Shown: piece after piece, positions 4,651 through 33,226 of the stretch
How positions within the stretch are numbered: position 1 is the first letter of the stretch
Layout of the letters: each line of letters opens with the position of its first letter
DNA from: Escherichia phage AV118
Strand: one strand, 5' to 3'
DNA length: 64,000 nt
Sequence record: OR352948.1
The notes under the pieces: generated by a model
The model's input: the letters and a program-made list of their open reading frames with translations, nothing else
What the model was told of the DNA's origin: nothing
The model's database searches: none
Made by a program: the position numbers and the translations under genes

Positions 4651-4680
4651 ATTATACTCTGCTCTCAAGAGTTTGTACAA
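4651..4680 (-). promoter_or_regulatory. Early-type promoter (-10 TATAAT inside 7-bp inverted repeat) upstream of ndd; part of a 35-nt sequence repeated at 51517-51551
   Basis: Minus-strand TGTACA-N18-TATAAT; gagagca/tgctctc inverted repeat flanks the -10. Confidence 0.4.
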
Positions 4681-9449: not shown

Positions 9450-9650
9450 TCACAAGTTACGTTTAAAAATTTCTGCCACTTCGAGAAGTTCTTCTTTAGT
9501 AGCTGTGTCGGTTTGTATTTTATATCGAATTTCCTTAAAGCCTTCTTTAAAGGCTTCAGCTGATTCGATATCAAAAAATCTTTGGATAAGCCGGAATTCC
9601 CGGAGCACTGCTTTATCAAAAAGTTCCAAGTCCACGTTATATGTTCTCAT
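9450..9650 (-). CDS. hypothetical protein (66 aa from ATG at 9650)
   Basis: ATG at 9650 with GAAGAG Shine-Dalgarno; the ORF-track start at 9680 lies inside the inverted-repeat arm. Confidence 0.4.
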   Translation of the reverse strand: MRTYNVDLELFDKAVLREFRLIQRFFDIESAEAFKEGFKEIRYKIQTDTATKEELLEVAEIFKRNL

Positions 9651-9670
9651 AATATTCTCTTCAGTAGATT

Positions 9671-9731
9671 CCTGAGGCACTATTACTAAAGACCATATAA
9701 TCTATCATCTTATGTGTAATAGTGCCTCAGG
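9671..9731. repeat. Perfect 16-bp inverted repeat (cctgaggcactattac / gtaatagtgcctcagg) with 29-nt loop
   Basis: Read directly; arms at 9671-9686 and 9716-9731. Confidence 0.8.
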
Positions 9732-9742
9732 CGATTCAGGAT

Positions 9743-10843
9743 TTACGCTGTGAAGATTTTATCCCACATCGCAACAACTGCATCTCGATTATACTTCTTC
9801 CATACTGCTTCAGCACGTTTAACTCGAGCTTCGTATGTGTCAGTGAATTCTAATACAGCTTTTGTGTAAAGCGCAACTACTTCTTTCTTAGGAGTAGAGG
9901 AATCAATTTCTACACGCACAGTATCTGGGTCGTATTCGAATGTCGCATGAGGATAATCCTTAAAAACTAACTGGATTACAGGGACACCTTTAGAGATGGC
10001 TTCAATAGAACTATTCTCTACCGTACCTGTGTCAGGACACGTATTAATAAGTGCTTTAGCTGTTTTAAGACGTTCCATGATTTCACTGTGTGGAGCATCA
10101 ATAATAACAGGATATTTAGCTGGTGGTGCCCATTTACTAGGACAGTATCCTACACCATTTTCGCCTAGTGCTTTAATCGCTTCAAGAGCAACATCAGTAC
10201 GACGCATTTTAGTGTCATAACGTTGGGCACTAATAATCAAATCAGTTGCTGGGAGAACTTCTGGCTTTTCGGTCAAACAAATAACCGGGTAGTCATCATG
10301 TTCAAATAATGGATTTTCACGCCAGTAATCATAATCAATGCTATCAGTAAGAGCTGAAGTCATATGGCAATATTTACGTTCAAATTCACGGAATGCTTTA
10401 GTAGGAGCATAGCTCTTACCACCGTATTTGTGGGTAAGAATAGTTTGTTTCCAAATTTCTACAATACCGCGAGATACAGGCTCAAATGGAGTTGCCATAA
10501 AATTTCTATGAACACTGGATAAACCGGCATCTTTAATTGCGTTAACAGTTAGTTTAGTCGGTTCCATAGTAACAACAAAATCGTATTCATGGATGCCGGC
10601 TAGTTCAACAATCTTACGAGCCATAGTATAACTCATACCTAGACTGAATTTAGTCAGATGACCAACAGGATGATGATTAACTTTCCAGTCACCAAACGTG
10701 TCATTATCAAAGCCGATATAATCAATATCAGCACCGATGGACACAAGATATTTCAACACATTTAAATGTACTGCTTCAAGGCCACCTTGTACACGGTCAG
10801 GATTAAATGGGACTGCACGAGATGGGATAAACATAACTTTCAT
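9743..10843 (-). CDS. GT-B fold glycosyltransferase (GT4-like, 366 aa); candidate DNA hydroxymethylcytosine glycosyltransferase
   Basis: N-terminal MKVMFIPSRAVPFNP..GGLE and C-terminal ENSSIEAISKGVPVI motifs typical of GT-B/GT4 enzymes; AAGG Shine-Dalgarno; sits between rIIA and 39. Confidence 0.6.
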   Translation of the reverse strand: MKVMFIPSRAVPFNPDRVQGGLEAVHLNVLKYLVSIGADIDYIGFDNDTFGDWKVNHHPVGHLTKFSLGMSYTMARKIVELAGIHEYDFVVTMEPTKLTVNAIKDAGLSSVHRNFMATPFEPVSRGIVEIWKQTILTHKYGGKSYAPTKAFREFERKYCHMTSALTDSIDYDYWRENPLFEHDDYPVICLTEKPEVLPATDLIISAQRYDTKMRRTDVALEAIKALGENGVGYCPSKWAPPAKYPVIIDAPHSEIMERLKTAKALINTCPDTGTVENSSIEAISKGVPVIQLVFKDYPHATFEYDPDTVRVEIDSSTPKKEVVALYTKAVLEFTDTYEARVKRAEAVWKKYNRDAVVAMWDKIFTA

Positions 10844-10860: not shown

Positions 10861-10887
10861 ATTAAAATGAAGCTCCCGAAGGAGCTT
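10861..10887 (-). terminator. C(UUCG)G hairpin terminator overlapping stop of the HNH gene
   Basis: Plus aagctcc-cgaa-ggagctt. Confidence 0.45.
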
Positions 10888-11684
10888 AGGACATCCAACA
10901 CATTTTATAACCTTTGCAGGTTCTGTTAGGATTATTTAATGCTTTCAATATATTAGAAGACCCTATATCTAAATACTCCCTTAATTCATAAAGATAGTTA
11001 AAATCAATAGTTTCACCTGTTTTTACACTTGTGATTCTTATAGGCCTTCTTTCATATTTAGATTTATACAACTCTCTAGTCTTAGCTTTAGTTTCTTCTG
11101 ACCTAGGAGTGTATGGTTTAAATCCTTTTGTTTTAAATGTTTCCATTCTTGATTTAGTTATTTTATCCTGGTGTTCTTTTGTTTTTACAGGTGCTTTTCG
11201 CCCATTCTCCCAAGATAACTTGTTGGCCTGTATTATTTTATCTATTGCTTCTTGCGTATGAGTTTTACCATAAAATGGATTTAATTCGCCTATACGTTGT
11301 GAAGCAATATGTGACATTAATTCTCTTGTTGCTTTAGTATGTTTTTTTACCTTTAAATGGATTGCCATTTTTAGCAATCCATTCTTTCATAAATCTAGAG
11401 TGCTCTTTAGAGAATTCTTGTTTAAGCCAATCATAATCTCTAGAATTTCTAGCTCCCATGTAAAAAGCTCTAATAGCCATAAGCATAGAACGGTTCTTAT
11501 GAATTTTATAAAGCAATAAATGGGCGATAAAATGCTCTCTAGGGGTCATTTTAACTAGATTTGATTTAGCATTACTCCCACCCATAGATTTAGGCAAAAT
11601 ATGGTGAGTTTCAGTATAATTAGGAATAGTGCTGCGGTTTTTAGCCGCAGCGATAAGTTTATCATAAATTTTACGATAATTCAT
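10886..11684 (-). pseudogene. HNH homing endonuclease (HNH N-terminal domain + NUMOD3 C-terminal repeats) disrupted by +1 frameshift in an A7 run (plus-strand T-run 11342-11348)
   Basis: ORFs 11334-11684 (HNH motif ETHHILPKSMGGSN...REHFIAH) and 10886-11377 (NPFYGKTH NUMOD3 repeats) are in frames offset by 1; removing one A restores a continuous NPFKGKKHTKATREL reading; ATG at 11684 shares TAATG with gene 39 stop. Confidence 0.55.
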
Positions 11685-13522
11685 TATCCTAGCATCCAAT
11701 CTTTACGGAGTTCAGGGTCGTTACCCATGAGCATTTCAAATAGTTCTTTCCAATTTTCAGGAAGTTTAACTACGTCGTACACAGGGTTTTGAATCATTTC
11801 TTTATATTCATCCCGCTGAAGTGAGCCCAATCCCTTGATGTATCGAATACTATGCTTAGGCAGTGTATCTTTAACTTCTTCATACTCAGCTACAGTATAA
11901 AACCATTTTTGAGTTTTGCCAATTTGTGCAATAATTACAGGCGTTTTAACAAAGCGAATACGTCCTTGTTCAAACAATTCAGGCCAATTACTAAAGAAAG
12001 CAAGCAAAGCCGGATAAATACTTCCAAGGCCGTCATGATCGGCATCGGTCATAATTGCAATATTACGGTAGTTCGTATTCTCTGCCTTTTCACCAAGAAT
12101 AAGACCCGTGATAGCACAGATATCAAAGAGCTCTTTGTTCTTCATCATATCGACATATGACATACCCCAGCTATTCATCACCTTACCACGTAATGGGAAT
12201 CCGCCGTGTAGTTCACGGTCACGAACATCAATGAGATAACCAATTGCCGAATCACCTTCTGTTAAAAACAATGTCGTATCTGCATCTTTACCACATTGGT
12301 TAGCTTTAATATGCTTATGAACCTTAGCTTTAGTTGCCTTTTTAGCTGCTTTAGTTTCTGCAGCCTTTTCTGCTGCCAATTTACGAGCTAATGCGGCTTC
12401 AATTATAGGCATTAAAACTGCTTCAGAATTCAAAATATTTTTTGCCAATTTTTTTGTATCTAATTTAATATGCGTCCGAATTTCGCCATAAGGACTTGTT
12501 AAACGCTCTTTGGTTTGGGAATCAAAACGAAGGTTCTTCATTCCACGAACGAACATTAAGAGAGTGAGACATTCCTTGATGCGCGCTTTAGTCACGTCGA
12601 TTTTATATTTGCGTTTAATAGCCGGAATTAATTCTTCGCAAATGTCGTCCATCACACATTCAATGTGATGACCACCGTTTTTGGTATGGATGTTATTCAC
12701 ATAAGTTAAATGACGGAAGCCATCTGGTGACCGTCCAATGGCAATAGAGCATCCGTCTTGTTCTTGAATGATGGTCTCTTCATCAAATTGTTTAGCAAAC
12801 TTCTTAAAGTTACCTTGAATCTTTTTGCCATTAAATTTAAATTCAATACCAGGATAAACGACCGCCAATGTTTGGAGCCGGTCTATAGTAATATCTTGGT
12901 ATATTTTTTCAAATTGATTCATTTCAAAATGTGAGAAATCAGGAATAAACTCGACCTTAGTACCGTTGTTTTTAGACGGCTTAGATTTCCAAGAAATATT
13001 ATCAGCGTTATTAGAACAATTAACGGTCAATTCATTTTTACCATCTGAAGTAGTGCCAACAAAAGAGACAGAAAAAATATTTGTTAATGAAGAACCGACA
13101 CCGTTTTGTCCACCCGTAACACGTTCTTTGTCGTCACCAAAGTTGCCACCGGCTTTTGTACGTGTCCACGCCGCAACTGGTCCTGGAATTTCTTCTCCTT
13201 CAGGAGTAATAACTGTTTCTTGAGGAATACCTCGACCATTATCTTCAACAGTCACTTTATTAGAATTTAAATCAATACTAACGGAAATTTTATTAGCATA
13301 TTTGAAATTGGTTCGAATAGCTTCGTCTACTGAGTTGTCAATAATTTCATCAATTAATTTGAGAACACCTGCAACATATTTAACCTTTTTAAATTCACCG
13401 AATAGGAAACGTTCTTGTTCTTCATTGGCAACACTTCCAATATACATGCCAGGACGCTTCAAACAATGCTCTTTATCAGATAGCATTTCAATTTTATTAT
13501 CAATCATTAGATTTTCTCTCAA
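11684..13522 (-). CDS. 39: DNA topoisomerase II large subunit gp39 (GyrB-like ATPase + TOPRIM; contiguous 39+60 equivalent, 612 aa)
   Basis: GHKL ATPase and TOPRIM motifs (PGMYIG, EDNGRGIP, LTEGDSA, DADHDG). Confidence 0.9.
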   Translation of the reverse strand: MRENLMIDNKIEMLSDKEHCLKRPGMYIGSVANEEQERFLFGEFKKVKYVAGVLKLIDEIIDNSVDEAIRTNFKYANKISVSIDLNSNKVTVEDNGRGIPQETVITPEGEEIPGPVAAWTRTKAGGNFGDDKERVTGGQNGVGSSLTNIFSVSFVGTTSDGKNELTVNCSNNADNISWKSKPSKNNGTKVEFIPDFSHFEMNQFEKIYQDITIDRLQTLAVVYPGIEFKFNGKKIQGNFKKFAKQFDEETIIQEQDGCSIAIGRSPDGFRHLTYVNNIHTKNGGHHIECVMDDICEELIPAIKRKYKIDVTKARIKECLTLLMFVRGMKNLRFDSQTKERLTSPYGEIRTHIKLDTKKLAKNILNSEAVLMPIIEAALARKLAAEKAAETKAAKKATKAKVHKHIKANQCGKDADTTLFLTEGDSAIGYLIDVRDRELHGGFPLRGKVMNSWGMSYVDMMKNKELFDICAITGLILGEKAENTNYRNIAIMTDADHDGLGSIYPALLAFFSNWPELFEQGRIRFVKTPVIIAQIGKTQKWFYTVAEYEEVKDTLPKHSIRYIKGLGSLQRDEYKEMIQNPVYDVVKLPENWKELFEMLMGNDPELRKDWMLG

Positions 13523-14210: not shown

Positions 14211-14230
14211 GCAAAAAGGGCCGAAGCCCT
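14211..14230 (-). terminator. C(UUCG)G hairpin + U-run
   Basis: Plus caaaaa-agggc-cgaa-gccct. Confidence 0.45.
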
Positions 14231-16056: not shown

Positions 16057-16082
16057 ATTATTCTCCTCTGGTTGATATGGTT

Positions 16083-16111
16083 ATAATATCAAAACCAGAG
16101 GAGAAGTAAAC
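16083..16111 (-). promoter_or_regulatory. T4-early-type promoter (GTTTAC-N17-TATTAT) with -10 inside an 11-bp perfect inverted repeat (16063-16073 / 16093-16103)
   Basis: Read on minus strand. Confidence 0.5.
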
Positions 16112-20123: not shown

Positions 20124-20276
20124 AATATTTTCCTCTGTCTTACGGACGTTAAGGTCATTTAGCTGATAAGCTTATAATATCATGCCCTCAGGTAGTGTAC
20201 ACTCTTTTTTCGTAAAATGCTTTAATTTTTTATGTGTTATAATGGTTCTGAGTTCCATCCGGTTATTCCAATTCAG

Positions 20277-27887: not shown

Positions 27888-28201
27888 ATTTCCTCGCAAA
27901 ATGCCCATTCAGCGTGATAAACTGTAGCGCCTTTAGTATCATTCATTTGAACTACATCTACCGGAGAAATTACTCGATAGAGACGTGGTTCACCTCCATA
28001 AGAGCGTGCTGCTCGTCCTGCATAAATCTTTGCTAAACCGATATCTTCAGTAAAGAATACACGATCCAAGTTTTTCTTACGTCCAGTTTCAGACAGAACT
28101 CCTGTTTCTTCAGGAGGACAAAGCATGTTTTCGATGTTAGCTGAACTACTTGAACCGTGATAAAAAATCTTAAATTCTACTTTACAATCGATGGTTTTCA
28201 T
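27884..28201 (-). CDS. hypothetical protein (105 aa)
   Basis: ATGA overlap with dmd; promoter with 14-bp inverted repeat upstream (about 28206-28255). Confidence 0.45.
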   Translation of the reverse strand: MKTIDCKVEFKIFYHGSSSSANIENMLCPPEETGVLSETGRKKNLDRVFFTEDIGLAKIYAGRAARSYGGEPRLYRVISPVDVVQMNDTKGATVYHAEWAFCEEI

Positions 28202-28256
28202 TTTGTTCTCCAGTAGTTGATAGGTCTATAATAACACAACTACTGGAGAAGTAAAC

Positions 28257-28631: not shown

Positions 28632-28660
28632 AATGTTTTCCTCTTGGTTGGTGTAAGTAC

Positions 28661-28690
28661 ATCATATCATGCCTAGAGGAAGATGTAAAC
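28661..28690 (-). promoter_or_regulatory. T4-early-type promoter (GTTTAC-N18-TATGAT)
   Basis: Read on minus strand. Confidence 0.45.
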
Positions 28691-32326: not shown

Positions 32327-33226
32327 TTATTCCTCGATTACGACATCTTCATATTTAGGTATATTATATGGTGAAGAAATTAAAGCATTAAAGTAGATGA
32401 ACTCACCAAGACCTGGATGAAATACTTCTTCAGGATTTTCGAAATATTGAATCTTCGGACGTCCTTTAAGAATTTGATAGTACTCGGTTTTAGTTGGTTT
32501 AAAAATTCGAATCAACGCTTCTTCAGGATACTTATTTCTGTCAAAGCTATTATTTGGATCTGTTATATAAAGCGGTTGACCTAATTGAATTGCGCATTCA
32601 ACAACTTGTTCAAAACGATAGCATGGGTCACTAATTCGAAATGGATGAAAAATACCATCTAGATTAATAGGAGCCAAATCACCTACAAGACGCTGCATGA
32701 TGGAAGGACGTATAACTTTCTGCGTTACGATAATCTTATTACCATCTGCACCTGCGTTAACCAGCACTTCTTTTTGACGTTCATTCAACACAGTTGTTTG
32801 GATTGAACGATTAACCGACAATATGTCGGTTTTTAAGAATTCGTCAATATAAAAACGTGGTTTATTAGGGTCTGCGGTGATATTGAAATTGAATTCTACA
32901 TCAAAAGCGCCGTCATATCCAGTGATATCTGTGATTAGAAAATCACAATCATAATAAGCAATTAATGAATCAACCACAAATTCATTTTCAGACCAGAAAT
33001 ATTTACGAGTGTTATACGCGTTATCTTTATACCATAATGGAACAAACTTAAATTCTGGAAAAAGACGTTCGCATTCTTTAATATCAGATGCATTACGTGG
33101 ATATGTAATCACATCACCCGGATTAGCACGGTGCAAATGAAGTTGGAAGTTGCCATCCTTAAGGATAGCATACTGTCCAGTTTCATAAGACCGCATACTC
33201 AAGATAGGTACGCGGAAAATAGCCAT
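32327..33226 (-). CDS. Unknown protein (299 aa) in the beta-glucosyltransferase slot; candidate hmC-modifying transferase
   Basis: Translationally coupled to gene 42 (TAATG); no motif recognised by eye. Confidence 0.4.
   Translation of the reverse strand: MAIFRVPILSMRSYETGQYAILKDGNFQLHLHRANPGDVITYPRNASDIKECERLFPEFKFVPLWYKDNAYNTRKYFWSENEFVVDSLIAYYDCDFLITDITGYDGAFDVEFNFNITADPNKPRFYIDEFLKTDILSVNRSIQTTVLNERQKEVLVNAGADGNKIIVTQKVIRPSIMQRLVGDLAPINLDGIFHPFRISDPCYRFEQVVECAIQLGQPLYITDPNNSFDRNKYPEEALIRIFKPTKTEYYQILKGRPKIQYFENPEEVFHPGLGEFIYFNALISSPYNIPKYEDVVIEE

Follow-up and report, generated by a model that had tools for sequence, protein, structure and literature searches.

A perfect 16-bp inverted repeat between the putative hmC-arabinosyltransferase gene and rIIA.1 of a Mosigvirus phage: a candidate intercistronic mRNA hairpin

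The DNA analysed here (the window, 64 kb in full length) comes from a Mosigvirus, an RB69-like T4-type phage. The region considered is 99-99.5% identical to that of the Escherichia phages AV109, AV114, AV115 and AV116, and about 95% identical to that of about 150 further Mosigvirus genomes. It includes the following features:

13522-11684, minus strand: topoisomerase gene 39.
11699-10886, minus strand: two overlapping homing-endonuclease-like ORFs.
10843-9743, minus strand: putative hmC-arabinosyltransferase, homologue of RB69 ORF003c, 366 aa; the gene upstream of the hairpin, with its stop codon at 9743-9745.
9651-9742, minus strand: intercistronic spacer of 92 nt that holds the hairpin; no promoter or terminator detected inside.
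9716-9731, minus strand: 5' arm of the hairpin in the gene-sense RNA, CCUGAGGCACUAUUAC; starts 11 nt past the transferase UAA.
9687-9715, minus strand: hairpin loop of 29 nt, ACAUAAGAUGAUAGAUUAUAUGGUCUUUA; 8 further pairs predicted.
9671-9686, minus strand: 3' arm of the hairpin in the gene-sense RNA, GUAAUAGUGCCUCAGG; ends 20 nt short of the rIIA.1 AUG.
9662-9656, minus strand: likely Shine-Dalgarno sequence of rIIA.1, GAAGAGA, as read from the sequence; outside the stem.
9650-9450, minus strand: rIIA.1, 66 aa, the downstream gene, with its ATG at 9650 (Pfam T4_RIIA1, E = 8e-30, residues 1-65).
9437-7224, minus strand: rIIA, next after rIIA.1.
7214-6288, minus strand: rIIB, next after rIIA.

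The function of the upstream gene follows that of ORF003c, described as a putative hmC-arabinosyltransferase (PMC6024577). Between gene 39 and the transferase gene, one of the two overlapping ORFs carries an HNH motif (11334-11699, minus strand) and the other a NUMOD3 motif (10886-11377, minus strand); at this position, RB69 and AlbertHofmann have a 42-nt spacer only. The pair has the appearance of a homing-endonuclease insertion that has been broken into two frames, located where T4 carries mobA.

The arms of the inverted repeat, CCTGAGGCACTATTAC (9671-9686) and GTAATAGTGCCTCAGG (9716-9731), are 16 nt each, 100% complementary and separated by 29 nt. The first-pass annotation, which reported a perfect 16-bp repeat with a 29-nt loop between the glycosyltransferase gene and the next ORF, was exact in both sequence and coordinates. 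From the base composition, only 0.0025 perfect inverted repeats of at least 16 bp with a loop of 3-60 nt are expected per 64-kb window, and none of 200 first-order Markov simulations contained one; therefore, the repeat is real and not a product of chance. By contrast, 10-bp inverted repeats are common in the window (5.5 expected, 11 seen). Within these 64 kb, no second copy of an arm was found, even with up to 3 mismatches allowed. The spacers of two early promoters on the minus strand (20160-20201, CCTGAGGGCATGATATTAT, and 28650-28689, CCTCTAGGCATGATATGAT) resemble the arm CCTGAGGCACTATTAC, a likeness that is short, needs an indel and may be due to chance.

The annotation was also right in setting this stem apart from the terminators of the window as a longer one; the terminator-like hairpins elsewhere have stems of 6-9 bp and UUCG-type loops. 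The U-run that it described as missing is indeed lacking, since on neither strand is the stem followed by a run of U/T. An intrinsic terminator was thus rejected on account of the 29-nt loop and of tails without a U-run (AAUCUACUGAAG on the gene strand, CGATTCAGG on the + strand); the terminator scan, which lists the UUCG hairpin at 10887-10870, omits this element.

RNA folding bears out the very stable stem-loop that had been suggested as a possibility. The predicted fold of the gene-sense RNA (-35.3 kcal/mol) is the most stable of all 70-nt segments on both strands of the 64 kb (mean -9.85, sd 3.85 kcal/mol), and the 131-nt piece that contains the hairpin has a z of -6.27 relative to dinucleotide shuffles. 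The hairpin is still predicted in folding contexts of 190-450 nt. Inside the loop, positions 9711-9707 are predicted to pair with 9693-9689 and 9705-9703 with 9697-9695. These 5+3 extra pairs sit beyond a small internal loop and, added to the 16 bp of the stem, would give about 24 pairs, in keeping with the roughly two turns of interrupted double-stranded RNA of an RNase III site. The natural variants described below all fold at -24.6 to -28.5 kcal/mol and rank among the six most stable separate structures of the window. The runner-up among the 70-nt folds (-30.1 kcal/mol, 33126-33195, minus strand) is located inside a 299-aa ORF (32327-33226).

A search with the spacer (95-nt query) matched 154 phage records, all Mosigvirus-like, at 93.7-100% identity, and the transferase and rIIA.1 genes are present in the same set of 154 records. 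The spacer was read base by base in 26 relatives (GenBank records and metagenome or viral contigs), giving 27 sequences with that of the window. These sequences correspond to 11 haplotypes, every one of 92 nt and without any indel. Perfect pairing is lineage-specific: it was found in the window and in four AV records that are 100% identical to it across the spacer (4 of the 154 related records), and in none of the 26 relatives read. The forms of the hairpin are:

Perfect form, window and 4 AV records: arm GTAATAGTGCCTCAGG; -35.3 kcal/mol.
Majority form, all other relatives read: GTAATAGTGCCCTAGG, with one A.C mismatch and one G.U pair; -28.5 kcal/mol.
RB69 form, RB69: additional A.C mismatch in the stem core; -24.6 kcal/mol.
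TH58/ST2 form, TH58, ST2 and one metagenome contig (L021): terminal stem pair lost; -25.2 kcal/mol.

In the gene-sense RNA, the majority form of the 3' arm reads GUAAUAGUGCCCUAGG. Conservation in related phages had been proposed as a check of the element: the hairpin is kept in every close relative, though mostly in an imperfect form and without compensatory change, as no pair is altered on both sides in any of the 27 sequences. While 12 of the 16 stem pairs are invariant, all variation of the stem is confined to the 3' arm, where three of the four variable sites (9671, 9674, 9675 and 9679) lead to non-Watson-Crick pairs in the lineages carrying them. The loop varies at 4 of its 29 sites, one of these changes breaking an inner pair.

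Site variability was compared over an ungapped alignment of 17 sequences and 1295 nt, the p values being relative to third codon positions:

Third codon positions: 108 of 397 variable (27%).
First and second codon positions: 18 of 794 variable (2.3%).
Whole spacer: 9 of 92 variable (9.8%), p = 2e-4.
rIIA.1 initiation region (20 nt upstream of the AUG): 0 of 20 variable (0%), p = 0.0031.
5' arm: 0 of 16 variable (0%), p = 0.016.
Loop: 4 of 29 variable (14%), p = 0.13.
3' arm: 4 of 16 variable (25%), p = 1.

Taken as a whole, the stem is variable at 4 of 32 sites, which in raw counts is about half the rate of third positions. As judged from these counts, the spacer as a whole is constrained, whereas the pairing itself is not demonstrably so. 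Moreover, local divergence within the genus is shallow (2.5-4.2%) and therefore retention of the hairpin is not by itself proof of selection.

Several of these records call for separate remarks. In RB69 (NC_004928.1, 2428-2519), the extra change gives an A.C mismatch on the gene-sense RNA and a G.U pair on the RNA of the other strand, but one such case does not suffice as an argument for an antisense transcript. Shigella phage JK45 (NC_054940.1) carries at 585-1295 a perfect 503-bp tandem duplication that runs from the 3' part of the transferase gene through the hairpin spacer into rIIA.1, of which it includes the first 16 nt. This duplication, which is either real or an assembly artefact, doubles the hairpin and generates a fusion ORF annotated at 136 aa. 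The additional hairpin was rejected as a mobile cassette, the duplication being a plain tandem one. Except in JK45 and other tandem-duplication cases, the element occurs at one place per record. Furthermore, 'Escherichia phage ST2' (OM982647.1) is filed under Guernseyvirinae/Kagunavirus and is a 171-kb record with Mosigvirus rIIA, rIIA.1 and transferase sequence; its taxonomic assignment is probably mistaken.

The perfect state is distinguished from the imperfect one by two neighbouring bases at 9674-9675, TC in the former and CT in the latter, CT giving the A.C mismatch and the G.U pair. Among the 154 records, no intermediate with one of the two changes was found, and the identity classes pass from 100% to 97.9%. 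As in a quasipalindrome, a one-step multinucleotide difference thus makes or unmakes the exact complementarity of the arms. According to PMC7202029 and PMC8604942, template switching between repeat arms makes multinucleotide changes of this kind, and the TC/CT difference, as a pattern in the aligned sequences, would fit such switching between quasipalindrome arms in either direction. The AV clade is locally the most divergent one (4.2% to the others compared with 2.5% among the others) and behaves as a local outgroup; therefore, either TC or CT may be the ancestral state. Adjacent double differences are also found in the flanking coding sequence. Given this divergence and these coding differences, correction to perfection is, in our view, just as parsimonious as decay from it.

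Beyond the genus, no comparable hairpin was found upstream of rIIA.1 in eight other T4-type genera, where this position is occupied by overlapping small genes, an early promoter (T6) or UUCG terminators. When viral and metagenome contigs were searched for deeper homologues of the two proteins, rIIA.1 and the transferase, only relatives at 95-96% identity were returned. The transferase genes of Acinetobacter phages (42% identical) are followed by an ordinary UUCG hairpin. There was no match in 5,426 E. coli genomes or among phage records outside Mosigvirus, and a look-up of transcript-like contigs by exact protein returned nothing on record. Since the element was not found outside the genus, the comparison does not reach deeper than Mosigvirus.

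Various known classes of elements were considered for the spacer and rejected. Early promoters were scored with a two-block position-weight matrix derived from 18 clear promoters of the window (GTTTAC...TATTAT/TATAAT). These promoters score 16.9-24.1 bits, whereas the best site in the spacer, ATTACA-17-TATGGT, scores -0.7 bits; for a start site between the arms, this weak match is the only one present. The + strand of the loop contains a perfect TATAAT followed by CTATC, as at the starts of early promoters, but a -35 element is lacking and the score is at most -6.6 bits. The spacer contains neither a MotA box, the nearest middle promoter being at 14214, nor the late promoter motif TATAAATA. 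A PeSL cassette was rejected because no strong sigma-70-type promoter adjoins the stem-loop (best score -0.7 bits) and there are no dispersed copies. A MITE or IS remnant was likewise rejected, the element being single-copy, with no matches in the E. coli genomes or in phage records outside Mosigvirus and no direct repeat abutting the arms. No Rfam family could be assigned: the best match, mir-200, reaches 22.5 bits for a gathering score of 86, and the matches are miRNA and snoRNA look-alikes of the kind that any hairpin gives. The window contains no tRNA or tmRNA.

The explanation that we tentatively prefer, as possible and not as established, is that the repeat acts as an intercistronic mRNA hairpin forming a stability or processing boundary in a polycistronic transcript. 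All on one strand, the transferase gene and rIIA.1-rIIA-rIIB would belong to one polycistronic early or middle transcript; as no promoter or terminator was found between transferase and rIIA.1, we infer that the spacer is transcribed through. Once transcribed, the 61 nt would form the 16-bp stem, to which the 29-nt loop can add about 8 pairs. Since the hairpin extends from 11 nt past the UAA to 20 nt before the AUG, it would pack nearly all of the spacer into one compact helix. It would leave the ribosome binding site of rIIA.1 free and sit between two ribosome footprints. Such a hairpin could block 3'-to-5' exonucleases or be a cleavage site for a double-strand-specific enzyme of the RNase III type, a boundary that would let the transferase and rII segments differ in lifetime. 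The folded spacer could also deny entry to Rho or RNase E. The locus has the layout of REP-like elements, i.e. a stable hairpin in an untranslated spacer between same-strand genes with no promoter or terminator between them, and nothing marks this hairpin as more than an ordinary intercistronic one. It is rather improbable that it is a dedicated cis-acting RNA element of Mosigvirus, for processing or anti-polarity, that uncouples arabinosyltransferase expression from rII expression. Under that stronger proposal, for instance, an RNase III-type cut would set the 3' end of the transferase message, or the folded 92-nt gap would stop Rho or RNase E.

Less likely than the intercistronic mRNA hairpin, but with a real share of the probability, is that the repeat is a functionless by-product of an inverted duplication or template switch at the ORF003c-rIIA.1 junction, whose arms drift or are re-homogenised within a young genus. 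The stem without compensatory change, the 3' arm evolving at the rate of third codon positions with most of its changes breaking pairs, and the restriction of the element to one shallow genus (2.5-4.2% local divergence), with no such element upstream of rIIA.1 in the eight other T4-type genera, all suit such a scar; so does the TC/CT step, a kind of change that template switching makes according to PMC7202029 and PMC8604942. However, the early regions of T4-type phages are compact, and in the window it is exceptional for a spacer to span 92 nt and hold neither promoter nor terminator. Variation is also lower in the spacer and in the 5' arm than at third positions (p = 2e-4 and p = 0.016, respectively). 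Moreover, inverted repeats are deletion-prone, and yet none of the 27 spacer sequences has an indel. Homogenisation of the arms by template switching, if it took place, would require the hairpin to form in DNA, be it only transiently. As single-stranded DNA, the segment has a predicted fold of -17 kcal/mol (z = -5.3). Both points could speak for an element acting at the DNA level, whether a protein-binding palindrome, a cruciform or a single-stranded DNA hairpin used in replication or recombination. The suggestion of a DNA cruciform or protein-binding palindrome made in the first-pass annotation nevertheless fared poorly and such an element is very unlikely: with 45 bp between the centres of its 16-bp half-sites, the repeat does not resemble a dimer operator, it has no further copy in the genome, and one of its arms is free to drift. 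Cruciform extrusion is unfavourable with a 29-nt spacer. A replication origin was rejected, as T4 oriA maps near soc and not near rIIA.1 (PMC3016281).

Two other proposals give the hairpin a role in the expression of rIIA.1 itself. Translational control of the downstream ORF, which had also been suggested, was not upheld: the stem ends 20 nt before the AUG, with the Shine-Dalgarno sequence (9662-9656) outside it. A hairpin sequestering the ribosome binding site, of the T4 e or soc type, was rejected because the 3' arm holds neither the Shine-Dalgarno sequence nor the start codon, and an in-frame N-terminal extension of rIIA.1 from a GTG, reaching the stem, because a UAG closes the frame in most relatives. 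It is similarly very doubtful that the hairpin controls or couples rIIA.1 translation in any of the remaining ways, i.e. by masking the ribosome binding site, through a closing helix or through a 15-codon frame running from the loop to the Shine-Dalgarno sequence. The minimum free energy fold of the 131-nt piece does pair UCUUCA (9756-9751, end of the transferase gene) with UGAAGA (9663-9658, Shine-Dalgarno sequence), but this 6-bp closing helix is lost in the 190-450-nt contexts, where the Shine-Dalgarno bases have a probability of about 0.3-0.8 of being unpaired, and it was therefore rejected. An AUG in the loop does open a 15-codon frame that ends 11 nt before the rIIA.1 AUG; this mini-ORF was rejected in turn, having no Shine-Dalgarno sequence and no coding signature (three non-synonymous changes and one synonymous change within the frame). 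The T4 hairpins at e, soc, 49 and I-TevI have a promoter within them and, when transcribed by read-through, sequester the ribosome binding site. A switch of this type, in which a weak sigma-70-type promoter in the loop (ATTACA-17 nt-TATGGT, gene strand) starts RNAs without the 5' arm, would make read-through and locally started RNAs fold differently. The window has two clear promoter-in-hairpin cases (16061-16105 and 28201-28255, minus strand), repeats flank the -10 element in many of its early promoters, and T6 has an early promoter directly upstream of rIIA.1. In addition, a G-to-A change in the loop of phage F27 converts TATGGT into TATAGT, a -10 hexamer of real promoters here. Despite this, we consider the switch improbable, since about 500 positions of the window score as well as the candidate, at -0.7 bits against 16.9-24.1 bits. 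Its -10 hexamer also holds two of the four variable loop sites and is weakened in phage PNJ-9 by a T-to-C change, and the 3' arm leaves the Shine-Dalgarno sequence uncovered, unlike at 16061-16105 and 28201-28255. The PNJ-9 change in the TATGGT hexamer also breaks one predicted pair of the inner loop.

The two promoter-in-hairpin cases of the window deserve mention in their own right. They are early promoters (GTTTAC...TATTAT) located in 13-14-bp hairpins, the 5' arm being the promoter spacer and the 3' arm the next Shine-Dalgarno sequence; the ribosome binding site would be concealed in read-through RNAs but not in those started locally. Many further early promoters of the window, for example those near 4679, 5452, 26943, 51553 and 61725, have short inverted repeats on either side of the -10 element.

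We found no description of the ORF003c-rIIA.1 hairpin in the literature, and PMC6024577 does not contain the words stem-loop, hairpin or palindrome. A search for mapped RNA ends likewise yielded none for any Mosigvirus. If functional, the hairpin marks the junction of a recently acquired ara-hmC transferase gene with the old rII unit and would show RNA structure tuning expression across this junction with neither promoter nor terminator. If the uncoupling proposal were true, T4-type phages would have an RNA control point of a kind that has not been described for them. If functionless, it is a well-preserved scar and an ordinary finding. Between clades, the TC/CT difference may represent a natural case of a one-step quasipalindrome change.

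Among known systems, quasipalindrome template-switch mutation, as described in PMC7202029, PMC8604942 and PMC5941160, shares with this locus arms that are imperfect in most lineages and a one-step change (TC/CT), but here the change may have gone in either direction. PeSL elements consist of a terminator stem-loop and a strong sigma-70-type promoter (TTTACW-N17-TAYWAT, of the T4/PST type) and are repeated in the genome (PMC4122927, PMC2839356). The present hairpin is similarly an intergenic stem-loop in a variable region, at the edge of a lineage-specific gene (ORF003c), but it has no promoter and no terminator tail and is present in one copy. With the T4-type promoter-in-hairpin sites of the window it has the genome and the strand logic in common, and like them it is an inverted repeat (13-16 bp, loop of about 17-29 nt) that closely precedes a gene start. 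It differs from them in that no credible promoter lies in or before it and its 3' arm contains neither Shine-Dalgarno sequence nor AUG. Closest to the preferred intercistronic mRNA hairpin are the REP-type stabilisers of polycistronic bacterial mRNAs, such as that of malE-malF, and the 3' hairpins left at T7 RNase III sites. REP elements form a repeated family, whereas this hairpin is single-copy, and T7 RNase III sites are marked by a typical internal loop and by cleavages that have been mapped, whereas this one is a predicted fold. As in these systems, however, a stable stem-loop without a U-run lies in the untranslated spacer between two genes (here probably co-transcribed), in a position that would suit the protection of the upstream segment or the marking of a processing boundary.
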